Assembly (NCBI GenBank): GCA_039796775.1
Contig: JBDKJD010000004.1
Coordinates: forward strand, 6,103-70,102
Direction of reading: 5' to 3'
Length of the DNA stretch: 64,000 bases
Source of the DNA: Candidatus Parcubacteria bacterium
GTDB taxonomy: Bacteria > Patescibacteriota > Minisyncoccia > Phycocordibacterales > UBA5272
The position numbers were made by a program, and so were the translations under genes. Below, in pieces: positions 3,554-57,884 of the stretch (its first letter is position 1; every line of letters starts with the position of its first letter). The notes beneath the pieces were generated by a model, which saw nothing but the letters and a program-made list of their open reading frames with translations, was not told the origin of the DNA and searched no databases.

Positions 3554-4012
3554 TTAGAATGGGATGTCGTCGATGTTAACATTAGCATCTCCATAATCGA
3601 TCGTATCTAAATCTGGCGCTTGGCTAGCAGCAGCTTGTTGCTGAGGAGCGACAGCGTCGCTACCTGCTTGTGCTAGGCCACCTGACTTAGGACCGAATTG
3701 TACGGCGTCTGCTACAATTTCTGTTCTATACTTTTTCTCATTAGTAGTTTTGTCATCCCAGCTACGTGTCTGGATACGACCTTCTATCATGACACCTTGT
3801 CCTTTCTTAAGGTACTGAGCACTTGTCTCTGCCTGACGACCGAAGACTACGATGTTGTGATACTCAACTTGTTCTTGTTTTGCACCATTTGCATCTTTGT
3901 ACACACGGTTAGTAGCGAGAGAAAATGATGTTACTTTATTTCCATTTGGGAGTGATCTCATTTCTGGATCACGAGTCAAATTTCCATAAAGATATACTTT
4001 GTTTAAATACAT
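3554..4012 (-). CDS. ssb: single-stranded DNA-binding protein
   Basis: OB-fold SSB core, Gly/Gln-rich linker and acidic C-terminal tail ...DDIPF. Confidence 0.9.
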   Translation of the reverse strand: MYLNKVYLYGNLTRDPEMRSLPNGNKVTSFSLATNRVYKDANGAKQEQVEYHNIVVFGRQAETSAQYLKKGQGVMIEGRIQTRSWDDKTTNEKKYRTEIVADAVQFGPKSGGLAQAGSDAVAPQQQAAASQAPDLDTIDYGDANVNIDDIPF

Positions 4013-4661: not shown

Positions 4662-5069
4662 TCACACGAACACTGAAATACGTTTACTTTTGAGGTGATG
4701 TAAATCACTATACGCGTCTGCTTCGATAACCTTATCGACCAACGTTCCACTTTGCTCATTGATAATCGTGTTCTGCAAAAGACGAGCAAAGCGATTGTTG
4801 GGATTATTCCAACCCCACATGAGATGGTGAGTACCATTTTCTTGGTTTTCTTTCATGAGAAGAAAAACTTTGTCTCTTTGTCCTTTGCGAGAACGAGAAA
4901 GTCTGAGCAATCCAAGCTTTTGAAGCTTACTTTCTTCTTCGAGATCAAAACAAAGCTTGCGCCCTGCGATTGTGACTAAGATGCAACCTTTGCGTTTTTG
5001 GTGTAGAGCAACGTGAGTAACATACCCCCAAACGGAGGTATATGGTGAATACTTCATGATTTTCTCCAA
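4662..5069 (-). CDS. hypothetical protein
   Basis: 135-aa ORF, no recognisable motif. Confidence 0.35.
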   Translation of the reverse strand: MEKIMKYSPYTSVWGYVTHVALHQKRKGCILVTIAGRKLCFDLEEESKLQKLGLLRLSRSRKGQRDKVFLLMKENQENGTHHLMWGWNNPNNRFARLLQNTIINEQSGTLVDKVIEADAYSDLHHLKSKRISVFV

Positions 5070-5161
5070 TATGAGTGAACTGAACTATCTCTATCCTCTA
5101 CCTTTTTGAGCGCATTGTCAACTTGGGGGAATAGTAAAGGGGTTATTTAATAGAGAAATAG

Positions 5162-6007
5162 TTATTCTGGTATAGAAAACATTCTCTTCACATTCTCTAA
5201 CACCTGTATACGCATCGTCTCCATATCTTCGTTTCTGAGCACTGCCATACGAGCAACCACTTCTTGCACTTTAAGTGAATCATTTCTCTCCCCTCTGAAT
5301 GGAGCAGGTGTCGCATATGGGCTATCTGTCTCTGCAATAATCATAGTTGGGGGTAAAAATCTGACAACATCATCGTAATCTTTGGTAAACGTAATAACTC
5401 CGGAGAAGCTCATAGTGAATCCAATCTCAATAAACCGCTTAGCTATGTCGATGTCTCCTACAAAAAAATGTGCATTGCCTCGCAATTTAGTCCCGTACTT
5501 TTTCTTGGCGCCTTCAAGCATAAAAAGCATGTCTTCATACGCATCCATCGTGCCTTTACTTGGTCTACCGTGGAGCATGAGGGGTAAGTTAAGTTCTACA
5601 GCAAGATGTATCTGCTCTTCAAAAATTCTCTTCTGTCTGTCTGCTTCAGCGTCTTTATTCCAAGATAAGCCCTTCTCTTTCTTATCTCTATCAAAAAATG
5701 TCTCAACATAGTGGTAATCGAGTCCACATTCCCCTATTGCGACAACCTTTTTACTCTTAGCTAAGTCGCGATAAAACCCTGCATCAAATTCCTCCGTGAC
5801 ATTGTCTGCTGGATGATGCCCGACACTTGCGAAAACATGCTCACACTTCTCAGCTAAAGCAACCGCTTTTGTACTCTCTTCTTTATCTGTACCAACGGTT
5901 ATAGCCCCAACACCATAGGACTTCATAGAAGCGAGCACCTGGTCTCTATCTTCATCATACTTTCTGTCATGGAGATGCGCATGGGCATCAAAGAGAGCGT
6001 AGTTCAT
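5162..6007 (-). CDS. tatD: TatD-family metal-dependent hydrolase/DNase
   Basis: N-terminal FDAHAHL, internal GECGLDYH and later His/Asp ligands typical of TatD amidohydrolase fold. Confidence 0.85.
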   Translation of the reverse strand: MNYALFDAHAHLHDRKYDEDRDQVLASMKSYGVGAITVGTDKEESTKAVALAEKCEHVFASVGHHPADNVTEEFDAGFYRDLAKSKKVVAIGECGLDYHYVETFFDRDKKEKGLSWNKDAEADRQKRIFEEQIHLAVELNLPLMLHGRPSKGTMDAYEDMLFMLEGAKKKYGTKLRGNAHFFVGDIDIAKRFIEIGFTMSFSGVITFTKDYDDVVRFLPPTMIIAETDSPYATPAPFRGERNDSLKVQEVVARMAVLRNEDMETMRIQVLENVKRMFSIPE

Positions 6008-6050
6008 GGGGGGGGTAGTTATTAGTGGTTAGTGGTTAGTGGTTAGAAAT
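6008..6050 (-). promoter_or_regulatory. tandem-heptamer leader element upstream of tatD
   Basis: sense CTAACCA CTAACCA CTAACCA CTAATAA CTACCCCCCC-ATG. Confidence 0.5.
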
Positions 6051-6150
6051 AAGTATACATCATACTCATTAGGTGCAATCGGTGACATCTTCTTAGATAA
6101 AAGAAAACAGCTCATATGGGAGCTGTTTTTGGGGACAGATTTTTCATCTG

Positions 6151-6704
6151 TTACTTGATAGGGGTTGGAGACTTCGTGCCTGATCTTACCATACTAAGCT
6201 CTAGCCGTGTCTCCATCAGAAGTTTACCTAAATGATTCTGTCCCTGACGAGAAGAGTCTGGATATACGGCGACACCAAAAAAGGCATCTCCCCACCAATT
6301 CGTTTCTTCTAGATGTTTCCCTACTGTTGACAGGAGAAAATCTCCAAGTTTTGGGTTGCCATAAATTTTGACCAAAGAATTTGTTTCATGACGGACAATT
6401 TACGCTCCTCCCACTCCTCTTCTGTATATGCCCACAGATGTCGCTTTTGGCCCAAAGTTTTGGCTTGTTTTGGAGACACAAAAACAAACTGAGATCGCAA
6501 ATATCTTTGATCTTGTTGAACGGTTGAAAACTTGGCAGCTTGATAGGCATTCTCGCTTGATGGGTAAATCACACCCTCAAAGACAACTTGGCATGGCCAC
6601 ATGTTGGAAAGTGGTCTATATTCGCCAAAAAATCCTCCTATTTTTGTCGCGCTGATTTCTTGAATCAATTGCGCTTTCTTGCTAAGAGAAAGTTGAGCAT
6701 TCAT
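6151..6704 (-). pseudogene. NADAR (YbiA/DUF1768-like N-glycosidase) domain gene split by a frameshift into two overlapping ORFs
   Basis: ORF 6321..6704 carries NADAR N-terminal half (GEYRPLSNMWPC..YPSSENAYQAAKF), ORF 6151..6375 carries the C-terminal half (ETNWWGDAFFGVAVY...GQNHLGKLLMETR); frames overlap 6321-6375. Confidence 0.55.
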
Positions 6705-18892: not shown

Positions 18893-20518
18893 TTAATCTG
18901 CAAGAAGGGAAAGTTTGGCCTGAGTTGCCATCTCTCCAGCAAGCCGAGTGAGTTCAGCATCCTCCTTTGTGTCCACGAACCTCATTGCTGCCGCAATCCT
19001 CGGATATACCGAAGCGAACTTCTCATGCATTGTGAGAGTTACCCTGCGGTAACCAGGATGGCCTTCTGGCATGCTCCTGATTTCGTGAAGGTGGAAAGAT
19101 TCACGCGTGTTAACCGCTTCACGCCACCGCATACGGTGCCCGAGCAGGGTGGTGTACTGCGACTCCTGTTCGAACCCTTGCCTTTTAACTTCACCATACA
19201 ACTTTTCCGCGATATCGAACGCCTCAACGAACGGCTTTTCTAGTCCGGCCTCAATCACAACAGGCGGAATCTCGTAGCCGAGGAACGGCGTAAGATCCTG
19301 CCAGTCCATGCCGTCTACTGGGCGATGGCGCTGTAGGTCACGAAAAATCCCATAGTCCGTCACGTTTTCCCACTTGGTTTGTAGGAATTCGAACGAACGT
19401 CCTGGGCGATGGCGCCGGTTGTACCGGGTTCCAATTCCTGCTTGAAGGACTCTCACGAGTTGCTCCTGACTGAGGTTTTGGGCTTGCCGCATGACACTTT
19501 CGTAGCTTTGATCAGAACCTGTCCACAACAAGTCCGCGACAACAGACATCTCATCCTGAGGCCAGTGATTAACCAGGTTGACTTCGACACCAGGGGCAAT
19601 GATCTCTTCCGGAGATAGGTATTCCTTAGCAAGGACACGAACATCCTGCCGGATTTGTCGACGATAATTGATTGCTGCGCCACCGCGTTCAGGGATATCC
19701 GTGCGCTCAAAAAACTGAGGAGCTATGACACGAACTTGTTGGAGAAGCTTCTTCCCGAGCTCGTTGGCTTCCAGGAGATCAAGCGACGCAAGTCGCATGA
19801 TGAGATAGTCAAACGACTGCGCATTGCCGACAATGCCGACTGTCGAAGTCGTCGCAACAGGAAGCATGTTACGTGCCGCATCACATGCTTGGGCGCGGGT
19901 GGCACCCATCCATGCGACTCTTTCCCTTTTTTCTTCTGAAGGATCCGACAAAGAAAAGGGTGACTTCTTTCTGATGTACCCCGAAAGCTCCCGCACCACT
20001 TCTGAGTAGAGTGCGAAAATGCGGTCCATATCCGTGCGATACCTGTTGAGAAGCGTTTCTGGAAAATTCATCGGCACATAGTACCGATACACCAGCTTGC
20101 CGTCCTTGTCGTAAACCTGCACATCAAAGTAGATGTAACGGGTCGACTGTTCAAGGTAGGCAGCGAACCGCCCCCTTTCCAGGAACTTGGTCATGATGTT
20201 AGAGCATTGTTCGACGACGACCGAAAGCGGCATGAGCTGCTGCACCGAGTCGTCACCGTAGCCTGTAATCACACGCTTGAAGAGCCCGTTCAAGACATCA
20301 CCAGATTTACCGGCGAACTCTTTCAGGATCACCATCCGCATGTCGTCCCCCGTGCGGGAGAGACGAGCCATGGCGCCGGCGATCATCAAGGGTTCGGCTT
20401 CGCGAGAGAAGGCATACACCTACCCTTGCGGATCAGTCGTGATCTTGGCCAGATAATTCAAGCCAAATTCGGTAGGAACAGCAATGCTGCCCTCCATGCG
20501 AAAATACTCTTGTTCCAT
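18893..20518 (-). CDS. thyX: ThyX (Thy1, flavin-dependent thymidylate synthase)-like protein with two tandem ThyX-like domains; GC-rich; interrupted by one in-frame TAG (20420-20422)
   Basis: ATG 20518 with GAAAGGAAAT RBS; MEQEYFRMEGSIAVPTEFGLNYLAKITTDPQG-TAG-VYAFSREAEPLMIAGAMARLS..; ARNMLPVATTST...N.QSFDYLIMRL and second-half RHRPVDG / RMRWREAVNTRESFHLHEIRS resemble ThyX motifs; ~50 % GC vs ~36 % flanks. Confidence 0.55.
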
Positions 20519-48979: not shown

Positions 48980-49236
48980 TTCATACCTTGAAGTTTTTTT
49001 AGCTAAAGAAAGAAAATCTTCAGCATCTTTCTTACCTTCACCCCTTGACTCCGTAACTCTTTTAAATCTTTTGCAAGACCATTTCTATAATTATTAGGTG
49101 ATTGTTCCATGGACTTAATAATAACACAAATTATAGTCAGTACTTCTTGACTCCTTGTAAAACAAGTGTTTTTAGAGTAGTATCCCCCTTATGAACCCCT
49201 TTAGTGTTGATCTTCTCAAAGTTCTCAAGCTTCTCA

Positions 49237-49260
49237 AGTAGGAGGCGGTGAGATTCGCTC
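49237..49260. repeat. degenerate 24-nt copy of the 3' end (T-arm + acceptor) of tRNA-Ser located 8.5 kb away; candidate distal att site of an island
   Basis: ggaggCggtgagattcg--ctcac vs tRNA-Ser 57798-57823 ggaggAggtgagattcgAActcac, same orientation. Confidence 0.35.
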
Positions 49261-49366
49261 ACAAATCTGCCTCGTCACGTTGTTCCTCGAAGCAGATTCG
49301 CGACCCCTATTCTCATCTCACGCAAACCACGCAGGTGGTTTGCTACTGCGCCTCGCTTGTGAATAA

Positions 49367-49400
49367 AAAACCCAGTAACTACTGGGTTTTTTATTCAAGC
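49367..49400. terminator. perfect hairpin AAAAAACCCAGTA-ACT-ACTGGGTTTTTT (bidirectional) flanking GC-rich cassette; preceded by second hairpin GCAAACCAC-GCAG-GTGGTTTGC (49321-49342)
   Basis: seen directly. Confidence 0.55.
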
Positions 49401-49405
49401 GGCAA

Positions 49406-50489
49406 GCGGTGTATTTTAAAAATAGCTCGAACGGAATTCTGCCCTCGCCGCGCTTTGCGCGGCTCGGGTGTGGCGGAGCAAAAATGAGCGGCTCCGCCGC
49501 GCACACTGACAATTTTAAGTTTTTCTTTGGCGGAATACAAATTCGAGCGTGCGGAGCACGCACAAAATAGTTCTTTACAAAAAGAAGCGCGCCAGAGGTC
49601 CGGTGGACATGGCGCGCGTGGTTGGAAGCGGCGCACAGCTGTGCTTCCGCTAGGCGCTAGGAGAGGGCGCTGGCAAGTCGAGCGACGATCCCGCGATATT
49701 TCACGAGTTCGTTTTTGGGGATTCGACACTCGTTCTCGCCTTCGAGTGCAGCGACGGCGATTTGCGCATTCGGAAACAAACGCACCCACGTCCGCCGTTG
49801 AACCTTCTCGGTGAGCTCGATGATCTGTTTGCCGTCGATGAAGCCACTGGACGAAAACATGTCCTCGTCGGTGAGAACGATCTCGTGGCGAACGGCTTCC
49901 GTGCCGATGTCCTCATCGAAGTAGAGCTTGCCGAACTCCATCTCGCTATCCCACTCGCGGAAGTTGTCCTTGGAGGTCGGCTCCAGTTCGGGGACGAGCG
50001 ACATCATGAGCGCCTGAAGCTCCTTGGCGGTGTACACGCCGCCGGTTTTCGGGGCGATGAAAATCCACGGTGTGGCTCCAGTAGCCGTCCCTGCCTGGTA
50101 GATAGTTCCGCTCCGGCGCGCCGACGATCGTGATGTTCGGATTGTTTTGCAGTGCTTTTCGAACGTGCGTGAGTTTGCTCATCGTGTGGTCCTCCTTTCA
50201 AGGTACAGGGGTTGAATTACCAATCTAAGCGACATGCCTGGATTTCAAATCAAGGTAGCATATTACACAATAAAAGTCAATAGGCGGCAAGATTGCCGAC
50301 TATTGAAAAAACCTTATGAAAAAATTTCTTTTGCCCTTACAAAATATGGTTTGAGCCGATTTGTTTTTAGGTTCTTTGGCAGTTTGGAGTGTGCGCGGCG
50401 GAGCCGCTCATTTTTGCCCCGCCACACCCGAGCCGCGCAAAGCGCGGCGAGGGCAGAATTCCGTTCGAGCTGTTTTTAAAATACACCGC
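49406..50489. mobile_element. GC-rich (~60 %) ~1.1-kb cassette bounded by ~102-bp near-perfect terminal inverted repeats (49406-49507 and 50388-50489; 2 mismatches), carrying one frameshifted ORF and no transposase
   Basis: revcomp of right repeat equals left repeat except t/c and a/g; each repeat contains internal palindromes (GCCGCGC-TTT-GCGCGGC); interior composition foreign to the ~36 % GC host. Confidence 0.5.
49657..50182 (-). pseudogene. GC-rich hypothetical gene inside the IR cassette, split by a frameshift (ORFs 49946..50182 and 49657..50037)
   Basis: strong RBS AAGGAGGACCACACG-ATG; MSKLTHVRKALQNNPNITIVGAPERNYLPGRDGYWSHTVD.. then frame change near ttttcatcgccccgaaaaccggc into ..FIAPKTGGVYTAKELQALMMSLVPELE..ARLASALS. 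Confidence 0.4.
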
Positions 50490-50496
50490 ATATGCA

Positions 50497-50550
50497 TTTA
50501 AAACCACAAGATTCTTTTTCGTGGTTTTAAATGCATATGCGGGCCATATG
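50497..50550. other. 20-bp-stem perfect palindrome GCATATGCATTTAAAACCAC-loop-GTGGTTTTAAATGCATATGC immediately outside right IR
   Basis: seen directly. Confidence 0.6.
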
Positions 50551-50649
50551 AGTTAAGTACCCACTAGCTCAAGCATCACAAGGATGTTTTAGTGTCTTTT
50601 CCAGACTCTAAAATATGTATGTGGGTCGCTATTACCTTAAGACAAAATA

Positions 50650-51321: not shown

Positions 51322-51457
51322 AAATTATGTATCTAGGTCGCTCCGATACTTTATTCTTATGGCGGAGAGTGTGGGTTAAGTACCCACACGTCTAGACCCC
51401 ATAAAGGTATTTTATCATCTTCTCCAAACTTTGAAATATGTATGTAGGCCGCTATGG

Positions 51458-51898: not shown

Positions 51899-52114
51899 AT
51901 ATATTAGGTATTCGGGTCTGCTCCGATACTTTTATATTATAGCGGGGGTCTTCGAGTTAGAACCTTTTGAGAACAAGACCTGTAAGGTTATTTTTAACTA
52001 TTCCAATTTATCACAATTGATGCATCTCGAGCACTGGAAAAAAGTGACAAAAGTGACACTTTTTAACTATATTAATTACACTTAACTGTCACTTTTTAAT
52101 AAAACAACTTAACA

Positions 52115-53074
52115 TTATTTCTTATTGTTTACTTTAAAATATAAGACCTTTTGTTCATACAGTGGTTTAAATATCCCATTTTCATATACAAACCTTGTTT
52201 TCATATACCCAGGAGGACAACATAACCCTGTATCCCACTCTTCCCCTTCTGAAGGAACCCAATGCATATAAAAACCATTATCGCTATCATTCTTAGTAAT
52301 ATCTAACCCTGTAAGTCCCGCATCTGCTGTAAAGATAATTTTATTACCTTTAACTACAATGATTTGATGAGGGCAATGATTACCACCTGTTCCACATAAT
52401 GATATTATAGTTTCATTTTTACCGTCTCCATCTACATCAAACTTTTCAAGCCCTACGATTGTATAACCTTCAGGAATAAAACGATAAGCAAGATCACCAT
52501 ATTCTTTTATTTGATCTTTGTATAACCAATCCCATTCAACCTTTCCATCACTACCAACCTTAAAAATTTCTTTATTTGATTTTACTAATGGTAAATCTTT
52601 AATTTCATTTGAATAATCTTTACTTGATAAAGTTATATCTTTAGTTGGAAAAGATTGATACCCTGTATCTAAAACGGCATAATCCATTTTATTCTTATCC
52701 TCTGGATCACCAGAACCCCAAGCGATATCTTTATCAGAAAAATATTTTAATGGCATACTCATTTCTGGAATTGTTCCAACAACACCAAAAGGAGATTCTT
52801 CACAATTAAATTCTCTTAAGAGTCTTACCCTTTCACTACTGATTTCTTCCTGAGTTGCGTTTGGATGATCTTTTAAGTATGTACTAGACCATTCAGCAAC
52901 AGACATTACATACTCTTCTGAGGAAGAAAATTTATCCGGGCACTTAAAAAATAAATTTTTATCAAATTTATAATAGTAGAACACTGAAAATAAAAACACA
53001 CCTAAAATCAAAAGGAAAAACCATAGAATATACTTTATTATTTGTTTTGATTTTATAATAATAGAAAATTTCAT
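52115..53074 (-). CDS. hypothetical membrane-anchored protein
   Basis: N-terminal TM (YILWFFLLILGVFLFSVFYYY), 319 aa, Cys-containing. Confidence 0.4.
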   Translation of the reverse strand: MKFSIIIKSKQIIKYILWFFLLILGVFLFSVFYYYKFDKNLFFKCPDKFSSSEEYVMSVAEWSSTYLKDHPNATQEEISSERVRLLREFNCEESPFGVVGTIPEMSMPLKYFSDKDIAWGSGDPEDKNKMDYAVLDTGYQSFPTKDITLSSKDYSNEIKDLPLVKSNKEIFKVGSDGKVEWDWLYKDQIKEYGDLAYRFIPEGYTIVGLEKFDVDGDGKNETIISLCGTGGNHCPHQIIVVKGNKIIFTADAGLTGLDITKNDSDNGFYMHWVPSEGEEWDTGLCCPPGYMKTRFVYENGIFKPLYEQKVLYFKVNNKK

Positions 53075-53084
53075 TTATTGATAA

Positions 53085-54011
53085 CTACTCTCTATATGAA
53101 TAAATATCTACCTGGTCATTACCATTTTTACAGAAAGCCTTAACAGAGTAACCACTTCTTGTTCCAACATTTCCAAATATTTCCATATAAGGAATATTTC
53201 CATTTCCATCTGCCCAAGTCCAAATACAAGTATCATAATTTTTTTGAATTTTGTACGGACTACTATTATCAGATCTTTCAATTAAATCCCAATATTTATT
53301 AACTTTTAGATTTGGGTCTATATATACATATCCAAAATCTGAAACACAAAATGAACTACCAGTCTTTGCCCTAATACTATTGATGTTATTAGTTATAACG
53401 TCACCAGAATTCATTTCAATACATGAAATAGAATTACCTTCTGCTGTTACGTCTCTGTATAAAGGAAGGTCTTGCCTTTGTTTTGAGCTATATTTCAAAT
53501 CACAAATTTTTACATCGTGTTCAGTAACACATTTCTCTGAGCTATATTTAACTCTACTTTTTTCATAGACGACATCAGATTGTTTTTTTAAATCAATACC
53601 CCTAGAATCATTTGAATTTGCATACACAGCAAAAGCCCACTGTTCTGAAGTACAGTTACCAGGATAACATCTATAGGCCATAGCAACATTATGACGGTCG
53701 TACCAAGCGTATTGATCGCAACTACTTTGATTACACCCAATATTATCCATTGGAAATATATCGTCCCTAGTCTCAGGTTTCTGGTTATAATCTAAAACCT
53801 GAGAACTATTGCTAGTTTTTGTATAGATATTTACTTGAGTATCCTGTTTGTCACTCTTCAAATAAAAATATCCAACAATAAGAACTACACCAACAATACC
53901 AATAAGCAAGAGTCTAATTCCCCATCCTATAAAAAACCCTAATAATGCCTGACCTGGTTCACTTATAAGTAAAACCCCTATAGCTATTATGATTAGCAGA
54001 AAAATTACCAT
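53085..54011 (-). CDS. hypothetical membrane-anchored Cys-rich protein
   Basis: two N-terminal TM segments then Cys-rich ectodomain, 308 aa. Confidence 0.4.
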   Translation of the reverse strand: MVIFLLIIIAIGVLLISEPGQALLGFFIGWGIRLLLIGIVGVVLIVGYFYLKSDKQDTQVNIYTKTSNSSQVLDYNQKPETRDDIFPMDNIGCNQSSCDQYAWYDRHNVAMAYRCYPGNCTSEQWAFAVYANSNDSRGIDLKKQSDVVYEKSRVKYSSEKCVTEHDVKICDLKYSSKQRQDLPLYRDVTAEGNSISCIEMNSGDVITNNINSIRAKTGSSFCVSDFGYVYIDPNLKVNKYWDLIERSDNSSPYKIQKNYDTCIWTWADGNGNIPYMEIFGNVGTRSGYSVKAFCKNGNDQVDIYSYRE

Positions 54012-54142
54012 GATTTACTTTATATTCTACTCTTATTTACAGATTATTCAATTTATTGCTCAACAAATAAACATCTTACAATGTAATCTTTTTTGGTTCT
54101 GCATAGACTATGCAGAGATTTTGGTTCTGTCATTAATATAAT

Positions 54143-55468
54143 ATGGAACAACAAGAAACATATGGACTAATGGGTAATATGACAATAGCTCCAGTACAAA
54201 AAATGAAGTATGTTTTGTACTCAAGAAAAAGTACGGAATCAGAAGAAAGACAAATTCTTTCTATTGATTCTCAGATTAAGGAAATGCTTAGATTAGCAGA
54301 AAGAGAAAATCTTGAAATAATAGATATTAGAAGAGAGTCTCATTCAGCAAAAGATTCAGGCCAAAGACCTGTATTTAAAGAAATATTAGAGGATATTAAA
54401 CGAGGTAGGTTTAATGGAATACTTGCATGGGATGCTTCTAGAATTAGCAGAAATGCAGGTGATCTAGGCTCTATTGTAGACCTTATGGATCAACAATTAC
54501 TTTTTCAAATACGAACCTATGGACAAACATTTTCAAATTCACCAAATGAAAAGTTTCTCTTGATGATTTTATGTTCTCAAGCAAAATTAGAAAATGACAA
54601 CAAAAGTGTAAATGTTAAGCGAGGATTGCGAACAAGAGTCGAAATGGGTTTATGGCCATGTCCTGCCCCTACTGGATATTTAAAAGAAAATAGAATGGAC
54701 AGAAAATGTCAAACACTTATAGACCCAGACAGAGGACATATTATTAAACAAGTTTTTGAGAAAGTTGCTTACGATAAATGGAGCGGTTTAAAAGTCTATC
54801 ACTGGTTAAAGTTTGATATGAATTTTAAAACAGCAGCAGGTCACAAAAATCTATCATTAGGCAATATTAATCTAATTCTAAAGAATACTTTTTACTACGG
54901 TGAATTTGAATATCCTCGTGGTAGTGGTAACTGGTACAAAGGAAGTCATAAACCATTAATCACTAAAGAACTCTTTGATCTTGTTCAGTCGCAATTATCT
55001 AGACAGGTAACAAGAACTGAATTTAACAGTAAAGAATTTGCTTTTACTAAACTTATGACATGTGGCTTATGTGGATCAGGAATATGTGCTGATGAAAAAA
55101 TAAAGAAGCAGAAAAATGGTAATGTTCACAGATATGTATACTATGGCTGTACTAAAGCCAAAGACAAGAATTGTAAATGTGGTTATACCAACGAAGAAGA
55201 TCTTATAAAACAGTTCCAGGAACTGCTAGATAAAATTGACTTAGACGAGATAGGAATGAAAGAAAAGATACGAACAGAGGTTGAAAGAATTAAGAGCTTT
55301 CAAAAGAGTGTTTTGGGAGATACACGACAAATTAAAATTAAAGATGTCGATATACGAAACTACGCTAAGTATATTTTGAAAGATGGGAAAGATCTAGAAA
55401 AACGAGAATTATTAGGTTGTTTTAAGAGTAAGATTTTATTGAATAATAAACAAATTAGTTTGATTTAA
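54143..55468 (+). CDS. large serine recombinase (resolvase domain + recombinase domain + zinc-ribbon)
   Basis: YSRKSTESEERQILSIDSQ catalytic-Ser region, recombinase domain, C-terminal CGLCGSG...YYGC zinc ribbon and coiled coil. Confidence 0.8.
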   Translation: MEQQETYGLMGNMTIAPVQKMKYVLYSRKSTESEERQILSIDSQIKEMLRLAERENLEIIDIRRESHSAKDSGQRPVFKEILEDIKRGRFNGILAWDASRISRNAGDLGSIVDLMDQQLLFQIRTYGQTFSNSPNEKFLLMILCSQAKLENDNKSVNVKRGLRTRVEMGLWPCPAPTGYLKENRMDRKCQTLIDPDRGHIIKQVFEKVAYDKWSGLKVYHWLKFDMNFKTAAGHKNLSLGNINLILKNTFYYGEFEYPRGSGNWYKGSHKPLITKELFDLVQSQLSRQVTRTEFNSKEFAFTKLMTCGLCGSGICADEKIKKQKNGNVHRYVYYGCTKAKDKNCKCGYTNEEDLIKQFQELLDKIDLDEIGMKEKIRTEVERIKSFQKSVLGDTRQIKIKDVDIRNYAKYILKDGKDLEKRELLGCFKSKILLNNKQISLI

Positions 55469-56232
55469 AAAGCACACACTGGTATAGGAATATTCATTTT
55501 AAGAATATCTTTAACTATTTCCATTTGATTTTGTCTCTTTTCCCAAAGAGGGTCCCCAGGACTTTCATTTAACGAAATTGTTATCATTGAAACGAGATCT
55601 CTGTGTTCAGCCAAAGCATTGAAAACGAATTTTAATAAATCTTCTTCTTGTAGATCTTTTGGATCATCTCCAGAAAAACCTTCTTCTTTGAAATCAAAAA
55701 AATCTAAATCAATATCTATTACACATTTACCGTTACTTTGCTTTATGCAATCTACTAACCCATAAATATCTGCCAGCTTTTTAAAAAAATGGAAATCTTT
55801 TTCTGGTAACCCAGTATGCCAGTCACCAGTTGAAGAATATATATAATAATGATTGAATACCTTTGCTTTTACGGCAAGATGTACAAAATTATCATATGTT
55901 ATACAAGGTCTCGTTTCTTTTCCTGTCCAAGGATCCCGAAAAGGACATTGCAAACTTTCATAAGTATTAAAATCTTTCAAGTTATCAAAAACGGAGAGAG
56001 CTTGTTCTAGGCACTCTGGCTCACCTAACCCTTCCCATCTACGAGCATCTGTGTGTTCATCTATGTGTATAAGATTGTGTTGTTTATCGGAAATGTTTTC
56101 ACATTGCAACCAACACCATAAAGCCAATCTATGGTTTGCCATTACATAGATATTATCCTCATTCCAAAGAAAAGTATTTTCATAAACCCGTGCGTATTGT
56201 TTTTTACTAGGTTCGATAATAAAAGGTGACAT
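55465..56232 (-). CDS. hypothetical protein with HxDxHxD motif (HIDEHTD) and IDIDLDFF segment; possibly UPF0489-like metal-dependent hydrolase
   Basis: 255-aa ORF immediately downstream (17-nt gap) of the AbiEii-like gene, same strand. Confidence 0.35.
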   Translation of the reverse strand: MSPFIIEPSKKQYARVYENTFLWNEDNIYVMANHRLALWCWLQCENISDKQHNLIHIDEHTDARRWEGLGEPECLEQALSVFDNLKDFNTYESLQCPFRDPWTGKETRPCITYDNFVHLAVKAKVFNHYYIYSSTGDWHTGLPEKDFHFFKKLADIYGLVDCIKQSNGKCVIDIDLDFFDFKEEGFSGDDPKDLQEEDLLKFVFNALAEHRDLVSMITISLNESPGDPLWEKRQNQMEIVKDILKMNIPIPVCAF

Positions 56233-56249
56233 ATGTTTTGTTTAATCAA

Positions 56250-57695
56250 TTAATATTTAGTATCAACATAATAACCATGACGACCATAGCAATTATTCCC
56301 AAATTTATCTTTGTGTGGATTTAATTTTCCATCTTGTTTTGATTTGGTAAACTTTTTATTACAATAACTACATTCGTATATATATTTTGTACTTGAAAAA
56401 CCACCAAATCTCTTAACTCTTGTAATTATCCTAGCTGGTGACTTTGCTGGTTTGTTTGGGTCAAAAAAGTAAGGCTTTTCTGGTTTTTCCCCAGACTTAC
56501 AAAGTTCAATCTGATATTTGGGATCAAATGTTTCTTCAGTGTTTTCTACTGACACCATTCTATCGGCTCTAAAAATTTTAATACTAGGAGAACTAAAACC
56601 ACCTCTTAATTTATAAGCGTATAAATATTCAAATTCAGTACCATCTTCTTTTCTCATATATTTTATTGAATACGGTTCAACAAAACGTTCTTCGCTAATG
56701 CCTTTTTCATTTCTATATTTAATTTTTATCACCTTCTGATCTCTCCCAGCTTTCATAATGGGCACTCTAAAATCTGGAGAAAAATAAATGGACGAGCGGT
56801 AACCGTTATCTGGATAAATTTTGAATAGATTTTCTAAATCTTCTAAAAAGAAAGTTATAGCATCTTCTATATCCAACAAAAATTCTTTAGAACATATGAC
56901 ACTTTTACCCCAAAACTCTCTAAAGTAGTCGAATGGTGTTTTAAGTAATATATCCTTAAGGTTATTAGGGTTTTTCCTAAAAATAGTTTTTTGTATTAAA
57001 ACTTCTACAACTTCTTCTTTATTTAGAGATCCTCCAAGTAATTTAATAGAATAAACGTAATCAAATAAATCGGGAGCATGTTGTCTTTGTAGTAAACATT
57101 TTAGTTTTGTTGCTACAATTTCTTCTAATTTCATACACGAAATTTCACACTGAAGATCGCCACTATCTGAATATGGATGAATTAGTTTAACTTTTTGAAT
57201 TGGTAATATTACTTTATCAAAACGTGTTATGTCCATTGATATTTTAATTTTTATAATATCTGGGTTACCATAAAAATCCTTAAAATAAAGTTTTGCCTCA
57301 TAAACCTTTAAGCCAGTTACAGGTTCTTGTCCTTCTTTAAATTTATCCTTTACCTTGTTGTCATCTTTTGTAAAAACAACACCATTTTTTTCCTGAATAA
57401 AATCACAAACTTTATTAAGTTCTTGAAGTAAAAAATCTGGGTCAACATCATTATGAATACCAAAATCAAGATCGTTCGAATAACGAGTATTTTCAAAATA
57501 TCCTTTTCGTAAAGCATTACCTCCTTTTAAAAAGAAAATATCTTTTAAATTACTAGCAGTAAAAATACCAAATAAAACCCAACCAAAAACATAATCCTTT
57601 TCTACGTGTGTGGGGTTTATTTCAAAATATTTAGCCTTTTCCTCTATTTCTTTCTTATCTATCATAGATAACTTAATTACAACATAAATAACCAT
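56250..57695 (-). CDS. AbiEii/DUF1814-family nucleotidyltransferase (abortive-infection/type IV TA toxin-like) with C-terminal Cys/His-containing extension
   Basis: EKDYVFGWVLFGIF...FLKGGNALRKGYFENTRYSNDLDFGI matches AbiEii N-terminal signature (LKGGTAL..R.SEDLDF); 481 aa. Confidence 0.6.
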   Translation of the reverse strand: MVIYVVIKLSMIDKKEIEEKAKYFEINPTHVEKDYVFGWVLFGIFTASNLKDIFFLKGGNALRKGYFENTRYSNDLDFGIHNDVDPDFLLQELNKVCDFIQEKNGVVFTKDDNKVKDKFKEGQEPVTGLKVYEAKLYFKDFYGNPDIIKIKISMDITRFDKVILPIQKVKLIHPYSDSGDLQCEISCMKLEEIVATKLKCLLQRQHAPDLFDYVYSIKLLGGSLNKEEVVEVLIQKTIFRKNPNNLKDILLKTPFDYFREFWGKSVICSKEFLLDIEDAITFFLEDLENLFKIYPDNGYRSSIYFSPDFRVPIMKAGRDQKVIKIKYRNEKGISEERFVEPYSIKYMRKEDGTEFEYLYAYKLRGGFSSPSIKIFRADRMVSVENTEETFDPKYQIELCKSGEKPEKPYFFDPNKPAKSPARIITRVKRFGGFSSTKYIYECSYCNKKFTKSKQDGKLNPHKDKFGNNCYGRHGYYVDTKY

Positions 57696-57720
57696 TGAAT
57701 ACTAGAATTTTGAAAAATAA

Positions 57721-57747
57721 AAACCATCATAATTGATGGTTTTTATT
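57721..57747. terminator. perfect hairpin AAAAACCATCA-TAAT-TGATGGTTTTT between tRNA-Ser and AbiEii-like gene
   Basis: seen directly. Confidence 0.55.
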
Positions 57748-57793
57748 TTCATTTAGTTTTCTATGCTCCTCGAGCACCAGAACCTAAACGACT

Positions 57794-57884
57794 TGGCGGA
57801 GGAGGTGAGATTCGAACTCACGGTCCGGTTACCCAGACTCTTGTTTTCAAGACAAGTGCAATAGACCAACTCTGCCACTCCTCC
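57794..57884 (-). tRNA. tRNA-Ser (UGA) with encoded CCA
   Basis: acceptor GGAGGAG/CTCCTCC, anticodon loop CTTGAAA, long variable arm, T-arm GTGAG-TTCGAAT-CTCAC, discriminator G + CCA. Confidence 0.8.

Follow-up and report, generated by a model that had tools for sequence, protein, structure and literature searches.

A decaying single-gene cassette in a Candidatus Parcubacteria genome belongs to a widespread cassette family linked to a large serine recombinase and tRNA-Ser

Bacteria of the Candidate Phyla Radiation (CPR, or Patescibacteria) have tiny genomes, are mostly uncultured and have few known mobile elements, and how they acquire accessory genes is an open question. A locus in a Candidatus Parcubacteria genome (contig JBDKJD010000004.1), of which we analysed a stretch of 64,000 nucleotides (hereafter the window), raises this question in compact form. 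The locus is a GC-rich cassette of about 1.1 kb in which a single gene, here called the cargo, lies between two long inverted repeats, here called the arms. A first-pass annotation had offered three candidates for it: a passenger element resembling a miniature inverted-repeat transposable element (MITE), an invertible segment and a foldback assembly artefact. We find that the cassette is a decaying family member with a frameshifted cargo, and that the family is widespread in CPR and apparently undescribed, since full-text literature searches returned no description of this cassette system. The evidence makes it fairly probable that the cassette is a non-autonomous unit of an island system that is driven by a large serine recombinase (LSR), is anchored at tRNA-Ser genes and circulates in CPR bacteria.

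The two arms are each 102 nt long and 98% complementary, with 880 nt between them (Table 1). They differ at only two positions (T at 49423 versus C at 50472, and A at 49477 versus G at 50418), and their complementarity stops abruptly at both the outer and the inner ends. A 43-nt piece of the arm occurs at two places in the window, with none expected by chance, and a covariance model of the repeat also finds two copies, with the next match at E = 0.55. The GC content is 0.60 and 0.62 in the arms, 0.525 in the interior and 0.58 in the cargo gene, compared with 0.35 in the flanks and 0.39 in the whole window. The first-pass annotation had described arms with the same boundaries and with two differences, the palindrome GCCGCGC-TTT-GCGCGGC within them, and an 880-bp interior holding one frameshifted gene with the Shine-Dalgarno sequence AAGGAGG. 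All of this was reproduced, except that the arm GC content is slightly lower than its figure of about 65%. Its view of the cassette as a discrete, compositionally foreign unit with inverted repeats, one passenger gene and no transposase also holds. We found no target-site duplication at the cassette; the left flank is ...GCGGCAA and the right flank ATATGCA..., without a direct repeat between them, and they have in common only a palindromic GC that is itself part of the repeat. Homology to the family described below ends exactly at the GCGG ends, and the outer flanks match nothing in related loci.

Because inverted repeats are a known assembly hazard, and because the composition of the cassette is foreign, the structure might be a foldback or a chimera with DNA of a GC-rich organism. 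To this can be added that a second assembly, the Logan assembly of run SRR35185531, breaks near both ends of the cassette, although contigs are expected to stop near a repeat in a de Bruijn graph. This assembly contains both flanks at 100% identity, and its right-hand contig runs through the flank and 48 nt into the right arm (50442-50489), again at 100% identity and with the C at 50472 that is specific to this arm. The interior is not itself a palindrome, and many independent assemblies show this architecture, some with contigs of more than 100 kb. The right junction in the second assembly, the two differences between the arms and this recurrence exclude the foldback proposed earlier, and we give next to no credence to an artefact of either kind. 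Exact-protein look-ups of two genes neighbouring the cassette returned only the same genome from one other assembly, and therefore there is no cassette-free strain for comparison.

The arms are not confined to this cassette. They belong to a CPR-wide structured repeat of about 100 nt, which we call the core. We scanned one genome per species with the outer 24 nt of the arm (18 specified bases) and found this motif in at least 119 DNA stretches from genome assemblies, nearly all of them CPR, where by our own estimate about 17 are expected by chance. These comprise Saccharibacteria, Parcubacteria, Doudnabacteria and other CPR groups. The loci that we fetched (numbered L001 onward) contain at least 148 copies of the core from more than 100 CPR assemblies, so that further copies of the 102-bp repeat, for which the annotation had suggested a search, do exist. 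Most copies are 92-104 nt long and consist, from the outer to the inner end, of a near-invariant G-end of about 33 nt (GCGGTGTATTCTTGAAATAGCTCGAACGGAATTC), a GC-rich hairpin, a variable second hairpin and a T-end that reads ...CATT or ...CACT. A scan of viral contigs for the motif gave two matches, which are unlike the core beyond the motif itself.

The core is folded in a conserved manner. In the family alignment, the first hairpin is paired in 92% of cells and has compensatory double changes in five of its seven pairs, and the closing stem, 5 bp that join the G-end to the T-end, is paired in 93%. None of 500 shuffles reached the observed pairing scores, and slid controls gave 31-57% pairing. 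The minimum free energy of the arm is -44 kcal/mol (z-score -2.6). The conserved hairpin and closing stem therefore identify the core as a discrete structured unit. The closing stem has mostly G.U pairs on the G-to-T strand, where the opposite strand would give A.C mismatches, and the structural constraint thus looks single-stranded. Both arms carry outward-facing terminator-like hairpins (GCGGCGGAGCCGC followed by TCATTTTTGC) in a consensus scan. Median identity is 97.9% between both arms of a single cassette and 82% between loci; the arms are homogenised within a locus. The core ends in ...ACACCGC(CA) and contains GTTCGAG, but what it has in common with tRNA is limited to (TG)GCGG and TCGAAC, and it is therefore not a true tRNA copy. 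A tRNA or pseudo-tRNA cloverleaf was also rejected as a description of the core: ARAGORN makes no call, and on the strand that reads like a tRNA the closing stem does not pair, as it does so only on the other strand.

Beyond its T-end the core continues into one of two modules, (a) (AACAATTTCAAGTTTTTCTTTGGCGG, 75 copies) or (b) (CCAAACTGCCAAAGAACCTG AAAACAAATCGGCTCGAACCATATTTTG TAAGGGCAAAAGAAATTTTTTCAT, 21 copies). There are at least 13 complete units with the order core, b, cargo, a', inverted core, where the prime denotes the reverse complement. These units are 0.9-1.8 kb long, the cargo of each is unrelated to the others, and in 13 of 13 it is read from b to a'. Examples of cargo are a HAD hydrolase, a MOSC protein, an Ig-like secreted protein and several membrane-anchored proteins without a known family. 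The window cassette has the same layout: two inverted cores with the GCGGTGTATT end outermost, module b 5' and a' 3' of the cargo with 96-97% identity to the family modules, and a cargo that is read from b to a'. Its inner 70-80 nt on the a side and inner 72-130 nt on the b side are 93-100% identical to cassettes with unrelated cargo. Across distant CPR lineages, arms and inner modules are 85-100% identical while the cargo differs, and identity at this level implies recent horizontal exchange. Other arrangements occur as well. One locus (L069) has five units in direct order, each b2-b3-cargo-a'-core, where b2 and b3 are parts of module b; another (L098) has nt 1-27 of the core fused to b2 at the common GCTCGAAC and is a recombinant of core and b2. 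Variants that lack the LSR read tRNA-Ser|C'-b3-cargo-a'-core' (L071, L100 and others; C' is defined below), and at the LSR-less loci L071, L100 and L148 a core lies in direct orientation to the tRNA. Within the five-unit array, a block of defence-like genes (L069 2122-5858) encodes a protein with Schlafen/AlbA_2 and HATPase_c_4 domains and has open reading frames that resemble DNA methyltransferases and are candidates for this function.

The link to the LSR was found by clustering all open reading frames near cores in 118 genome loci. LSRs are the second commonest family, present in 21 loci, and are 490-560 aa long with Resolvase, Recombinase and Zn_ribbon_recom domains. In 15 loci, some 120-150 nt separate the start of the LSR gene from the G-end of the core on the b side, with the gene lying outside the cassette and reading away from it. 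In all 15 the cassette has the same orientation, with module b proximal to the LSR. In 10 loci the LSR gene runs up against a convergent tRNA gene, 3' end to 3' end (tRNA-Ser in eight, tRNA-Glu in one and tRNA-Trp in one); among the 125 tRNAs of the 118 loci, 55 are tRNA-Ser. On the + strand of L064 the order is core, (a), cargo on the opposite strand, (b)', core', C', b3, LSR gene and tRNA-Ser on the opposite strand, where C' is an inverted copy of the last ~117 nt of the LSR gene (5123-6589). Within this LSR gene lie, in order, a' (codons AAKEKLEIV), a 17-nt palindrome, b1 (QTAKEP), b2 near residue 450, and C. Because b1, b2 and b3 are located inside or just upstream of the LSR gene, as is a', module (b) consists of three LSR-derived pieces in gene order. 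The junctions of the C-arm with the core and with the tRNA have in common the C-arm and (TG)GCGG, and they then diverge into TGTATT...CTCGAAC and AGG...TTCGAAC, respectively. The core G-end (GCGG...TCGAAC) holds the place that the tRNA 3' end has on the other side of the LSR.

Three further observations concern these loci. The LSR gene is itself bounded by inverted repeats of about 117 nt (4972-5090 and 6470-6589 in L064, with equivalents in L109 and L128); the last ~39 LSR codons lie inside the right-hand repeat, which is the same logic of inverted repeat plus GC as in the cargo cassettes. Just downstream of a tRNA-Ser(GGA) in L001, positions 3622-3805 hold a 5' fragment of an LSR gene (MRYVIYARKSSESEERQ...YSAKEKL), 19-nt and 8-nt remnants of two facing core T-ends and module b, a scar of an earlier rearrangement. 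The commonest gene family beside cores encodes a membrane protein of about 226 aa without a Pfam match (23 loci, e.g. L029 1012-1692).

From these arrangements we infer how the cassettes may move. The canonical home of the family is the 3' end of a tRNA-Ser gene, and the canonical order is tRNA-Ser, a convergent LSR gene with its last ~117 nt inverted upstream, a core with its GCGG facing the LSR, b, cargo, a' and an inverted core. Because the G-end GCGGTGTATTCTTGAAATAGCTCGAACGGAATTC sits where the tRNA 3' end sits across the LSR, the outer ~33 nt of the core may be an LSR half-site and a mimic of the tRNA end. The LSR would act on cassettes in trans and cut at the GC dinucleotide that bounds each arm. 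With a palindromic GC, resolution of two inverted arms could still yield a circle whose joint is itself a palindrome, and this circle could then insert at another place. The arms would also end transcription that leaves the cassette. The copy in the window would then be an ectopic insertion, or else the decaying unit at the outer edge of a tRNA-Ser island that has expanded (49.4-57.8 kb).

Several points weigh against this explanation. No recombination event was observed. A predicted empty site (TTCAAGCGGCAA-GC-ATATGCATTT) was absent from the metagenome contigs, and a predicted circle joint (AAAATACACC-GC-GGTGTATTTT) was absent from these contigs and from the fetched loci, in both cases contigs rather than reads; such absence is weak evidence because long perfect palindromes assemble poorly. 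The GC at both cassette ends is inseparable from the first 2 nt of the repeat. The 17-nt palindrome between a' and b1 in the LSR gene is missing at the cassette junctions; we rejected a single conservative exchange at this palindrome as the origin of the junctions because the palindrome is wholly missing from them. LSRs act on double-stranded sites and need no single-strand structure, and the G.U-rich closing stem is therefore a hint of some further or other function, in RNA or in single-stranded DNA. In the window, no cognate LSR adjoins the cassette. The nearest LSR is 3.65 kb away, is 37% identical to the family LSR over 348 aa (BLASTP E = 3e-65) and lacks the a' and b modules, and the covariance model finds only one cassette of the core family in the 64 kb.

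The neighbourhood of the window cassette follows the canonical layout in order and orientation. The LSR points towards a tRNA-Ser gene (57794-57884, minus strand), as in the canonical loci, and lies 2.3 kb from it, in AT-rich DNA (GC 0.31), with UPF0489 and AbiEii-WYL genes between. Starting from this tRNA-Ser, which is 7.3 kb from the cassette, there are two genes, the LSR pointing back to the tRNA, four genes and then core-b-cargo-a'-core'. All non-LSR genes between the tRNA and the cassette are on the strand of the cargo. The window cassette may thus be the outermost unit of an expanded tRNA-Ser island. However, three binary orientation agreements would arise by chance about once in eight cases, and the right flank of the cassette is unrelated sequence.

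A bolder version of the LSR explanation, which we hold to be possible but doubtful, is that the family is a gene-capture and exchange platform of the CPR that is integron-like in function, though made of other components. It would combine an LSR at tRNA-Ser with single-gene cassettes of about 1 kb and with folded tRNA-end mimics of about 100 nt that double as recombination sites and transcriptional insulators and act as folded single strands. If this is true, the conservation of G.U pairs on one strand would mean that the sites are active in this state, something for which serine recombinases would offer no precedent. The LSR of such a platform would have its own C-terminus encoded in its terminal inverted repeat.

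Other explanations fit parts of the same data. Arms that are long and near-identical might allow the segment between them to flip, through RecA or a serine invertase, and to switch expression in a phase-variable manner, as the first-pass annotation had considered. The greater identity of arms within a locus than between loci looks as if the arms keep exchanging, an LSR lies in the neighbourhood, and in Hainich groundwater metagenomes the same flank is found at the b side in L002 and at the a' side in L001 and L004. However, the difference between L001 and L002 can also arise in metagenome assembly through repeats, and no second orientation is present among the contigs (not reads) of the LSR-linked loci, where 15 of 15 cassettes are alike. 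Furthermore, the 5' module and Shine-Dalgarno sequence of the cargo lie inside arms that both have outward terminator-like hairpins, so a flip changes nothing obvious. We consider an invertible segment quite unlikely. Spread by homologous recombination without a dedicated recombinase is also unlikely. In this case the arms and the a and b modules would be portable homology arms between which the cargo is swapped after DNA uptake, resembling the minimal mobile elements of Neisseria. This would suit the high identity of arms and inner modules across distant CPR lineages that carry different cargo, as well as the module mosaics with several recombinant junctions (L001, L005, L098). It offers no account of insertion at a site without prior arms, such as that in the window with flanks that match nothing else, and it leaves both the sharp GCGG boundary and the systematic link to LSR and tRNA-Ser unaccounted for.

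The fold of the core raises another alternative, namely that the arms are primarily a structured RNA (a small RNA, leader, 3' element, or processing or termination signal) and that their inverted arrangement is secondary. The closing stem that is largely G.U on one strand only, the compensatory changes in the first hairpin, the folding energy and the terminator-like hairpins inside the arms all agree with this. By contrast, Rfam yielded no relevant family for the cassette, whether searched with gathering thresholds or with E values of up to 10, and the scan detected no promoter that could drive such an RNA. On the a side, the strand that the G.U pairs favour runs antisense to the cargo. A role as RNA would by itself also leave the anchoring at tRNA-Ser and the junction modules derived from the LSR unexplained. 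We regard it as improbable that RNA function is the primary one, but this reading is compatible with the LSR explanation and does not exclude it. The MITE-like passenger of the first-pass annotation came closest of its three candidates, since the cassette ends in inverted repeats, carries a passenger gene and encodes no transposase. Derivation from an insertion sequence (IS), with movement by a DDE transposase acting on the inverted repeat ends, is very improbable. The cassette lacks a target-site duplication, no transposase is among the gene families that recur beside cores in the 118 loci, where the recurrent enzyme is the LSR, and internally structured repeats of 102 nt are unlike typical IS ends. 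Two other types of element were rejected: the template and variable repeats of diversity-generating retroelements are direct repeats and need a reverse transcriptase, and IS200/IS605 or REP/RAYT elements were dismissed because no HUH protein is present.

We also examined the cargo gene, which is broken by a 2-nt deletion at 50059/50060 relative to intact homologues. A homology search with the repaired 175-aa protein, a step suggested by the first-pass annotation, gave 80 homologues, the best 85% identical, and where the source is named these come from Patescibacteria assemblies. The protein has no match in Pfam, PHROG, PADLOC or the sequences of the PDB. Its structure model has a predicted local distance difference test (pLDDT) score of 95.2, and Foldseek found no significant structural neighbour in the PDB or BFVD; the best match, a small alarmone synthetase (E ~0.05, TM score 0.33), was not taken as homology. 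The cargo belongs to no recognisable family or fold; motifs conserved among its homologues are GKLYFDE.IG and RRTWVR.FP. It is compositionally foreign to its hosts, with a GC content at third codon positions of 0.74-0.84 in hosts of 41-46% GC (L001, L002, L010, L022). One identical cargo protein (P0004) occurs in at least three different genomic contexts, and from genome to genome the DNA of the entire cassette is about 85% identical, with a sharp end at ...ACACCGC. BLASTN with the cassette against plasmid and phage collections gave no match. Many contigs with homologues are only 0.7-1.3 kb long, and those checked (L008, L009, L013) are the interior between the arms alone, as expected when an assembler collapses both arms into one repeat. 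In five other contexts, this cargo has a tRNA-Ser gene immediately upstream. Of about ten contexts, six have a core downstream of the cargo, and only the window and L002 have one upstream. The decaying window cassette is probably of little consequence for its host.

Two relatives of the cargo have a different setting. In L005 (478-552), the region upstream of the cargo is mirrored about a palindrome with 35-nt arms that are 94% complementary, so that a 112-aa gene beyond it is arranged divergently. A distant homologue (55% identical) in L020 (3639-9707) lies among defence-type genes, with no detectable core nearby; its neighbours encode SocA_Panacea, a HATPase with DUF4325, AAA_15/AAA_21, RhuM and a DNA methyltransferase.

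Table 1. Coordinates of the cassette, its parts and nearby features in the window
Feature	Position	Strand	Description
Two hairpins outside left end	49322..49343 and 49360..49397	.	18-bp arms in the second; z-score -7.3; host flank, not part of the element
Left arm (core repeat)	49406..49507	+	G-end GCGGTGTAT... outermost at 49406, T-end ...CACACT innermost; 3' side of cargo; 115.7 bits
Terminator-like hairpin in left arm	49488..49500	-	GCGGCGGAGCCGC then TCATTTTTGC; outward, in sense direction of cargo; consensus scan
Module (a)	49509..49533	+	Reverse complement a' = TATTCCGCCAAAGAAAAACTT = codons ~31-40 (..SAKEKL..) of family LSR gene
GC-rich hairpin	49578..49617	-	GCGCGCC...GGCGCGC then TTCTTTTTG; downstream of cargo stop; kept in 5/5 aligned cassettes
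Cargo gene, 175-aa protein	49657..50182	-	ATG 50182-50180, AAGGAGG 50197-50191, stop 49659-49657
Palindrome upstream of cargo	50278..50305	-	CAATAGTCGGCAA..TTGCCGCCTATTG; in all aligned cassettes
Module (b)	50316..50387	-	Mosaic of three LSR-derived pieces b1, b2, b3; 93-97% identity to b modules with unrelated cargo
b3	50339-50316	-	Upstream region of LSR gene
b2	50367-50340	-	Segment near LSR residues 445-454; holds GCTCGAAC, window copy GCTCAAAC
b1	50387-50368	-	LSR codons QTAKEP
Right arm (core repeat)	50388..50489	-	5' side of cargo; G-end outermost at 50489; 113.8 bits
Mirror copy of terminator-like hairpin, right arm	50395-50407	+	Consensus scan
Palindrome outside right end	50486..50542	.	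22-24-bp stem; z-score -11.9; host flank; outermost 4 bp = last 4 nt of right arm
LSR	54143..55468	+	Resolvase, Recombinase, Zn_ribbon_recom (Pfam); genomic context of the element

Some of the features in Table 1 bear on expression of the cargo. The GC-rich hairpin downstream of the cargo stop appears terminator-like when read from the sequence; it was not called by the terminator consensus scan, and its 17-nt loop exceeds the loop range of 3-8 in that scan. A conserved block on the a side (49508-49587) has 94-100% identity to cassettes carrying unrelated cargo. The palindrome upstream of the cargo has compensatory differences among the window, L001 and L010; it may serve as an operator or as a hairpin in the leader. 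We rejected a sigma-70 promoter in the C-arm or module b because the hexamers are too weak and were not called by the scan.

The first-pass annotation had also reported strong hairpins just outside the cassette and had taken them to insulate it. Hairpins are indeed there, at positions that differ somewhat from those it listed (49321-49342, 49367-49400 and 50497-50550; see Table 1 for the corrected ones). We looked for matches to these palindromes in related loci and found none, and they look like the neighbouring genes' own terminators rather than parts of the element. The palindrome on the right is probably the terminator of the adjacent 223-aa gene.

This 223-aa gene and a NUDIX gene, both beside the cassette, are followed by the same 84-nt sequence (50549-50632 and 51372-51455, 73% identical) and preceded by the same 26-nt sequence (51340-51365 and 51920-51945, 85% identical). 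They resemble two units of a further cassette-like array, which is AT-rich and shares the strand of the GC-rich cassette. Just to the left of the cassette, positions 49137-49310 contain stretches similar to the 223-aa gene (26 nt at 85%, 16 nt at 81% and a weak 15-aa tblastn match) and are possibly the remnant of a paralogue of it. Beside the tRNA-Ser, an AT-rich stretch (52000-57800) has a GC content of 0.30-0.32 compared with 0.39 for the window. It holds the LSR, the UPF0489 protein, an AbiEii toxin fused to a WYL domain and two membrane-anchored proteins without a known family, and it looks like an integrated defence island. The window has a second compositionally foreign gene at 18893-20419 (GC 0.50-0.58), which encodes a 508-aa ThyX (Pfam Thy1) and is not flanked by cores; as read from the sequence, its neighbours are candidates for a thymidylate kinase and a dUTPase.

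The family matters for the question raised at the outset because the same repeat of about 100 nt and the same LSR-derived junctions flank dozens of accessory genes across the CPR, including Saccharibacteria, Parcubacteria and Doudnabacteria. This makes it a concrete and testable route of accessory gene gain in these bacteria. If the link to the LSR is true, the family would offer a way to delimit the accessory gene pool of the CPR and a candidate tool for site-specific integration in organisms that have no genetic tools, and it would add an LSR family with unusually long, structured sites.

As a comparison, several known systems have some of these properties. Mobile insertion cassettes and MITEs (e.g. 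MIC231 of Bacillus cereus) are derived from IS with DDE transposases, make target-site duplications, carry a passenger gene and are presumably moved in trans. The CPR cassette is like them in being non-autonomous with terminal inverted repeats and a passenger gene, and it differs in having neither a target-site duplication nor a DDE transposase. Clostridial transposons such as Tn4451 (TnpX) and Tn5397 (TndX) encode their own LSR, are 6-21 kb long, form a circular intermediate and make no target-site duplication; they terminate in short imperfect repeats and have at both ends a 2-bp crossover dinucleotide, which is GA and polar. The GC at both ends of the CPR cassette would correspond to this crossover dinucleotide, whereas no circle was found for the CPR cassette in contigs and its own LSR is not encoded in it. 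In the staphylococcal cassette chromosome elements (SCC, SCCmec), the CcrAB LSRs insert elements of 20-60 kb at the 3' end of rlmH, where tandem composite arrays occur; some cassettes lack a recombinase of their own and are presumably mobilised in trans, and the attachment sites are short direct repeats with small inverted repeats. The CPR family likewise has an LSR that would insert at the 3' end of a conserved gene, and recombinase-less cassettes, but at a tRNA rather than rlmH and with structured arms of 100 nt rather than short direct repeats.

Integrons resemble the CPR family in their arrays of single-gene cassettes, in a structured site of about 60-140 nt beside the recombinase gene (compare L069) and in having the structure of this site better conserved than its sequence. 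However, the integron enzyme, IntI, is a tyrosine recombinase that acts on folded single strands, whereas the CPR enzyme is an LSR (Resolvase/Recombinase/Zn_ribbon_recom). Integron cassettes are promoterless and in one orientation, whereas CPR cassettes have a conserved 5' module, b, and many have a second, inverted site. The CPR family falls outside the definitions of an integron, because it has no IntI and has its own 5' module, of an inverton, because it has a single orientation and nothing to switch, and of an IS-derived MITE or mobile insertion cassette.

The closest parallel is to the tRNA-anchored islands described as tycheposons, in which 27 of 937 elements carry an LSR (Hackl et al., bioRxiv 10.1101/2020.12.28.424599). 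Tycheposon and Islander islands have, like the CPR loci, a recombinase gene at the 3' end of a tRNA, cargo stacked in arrays by repeated integration, units separated by tRNA-end-like repeats, and some remnants without an integrase. By contrast, the CPR family always has an LSR, its units are of about 1 kb with a single gene, and its hosts are CPR bacteria. Its repeat is a structured element of about 100 nt that merely resembles a tRNA end (GCGG...TCGAAC), many of its units have a second, inverted copy, so that the bounding repeats are inverted rather than direct, and its inner junctions are pieces of the recombinase gene. With these differences, the CPR system would seem to work most like tRNA-anchored integrative islands such as tycheposons.

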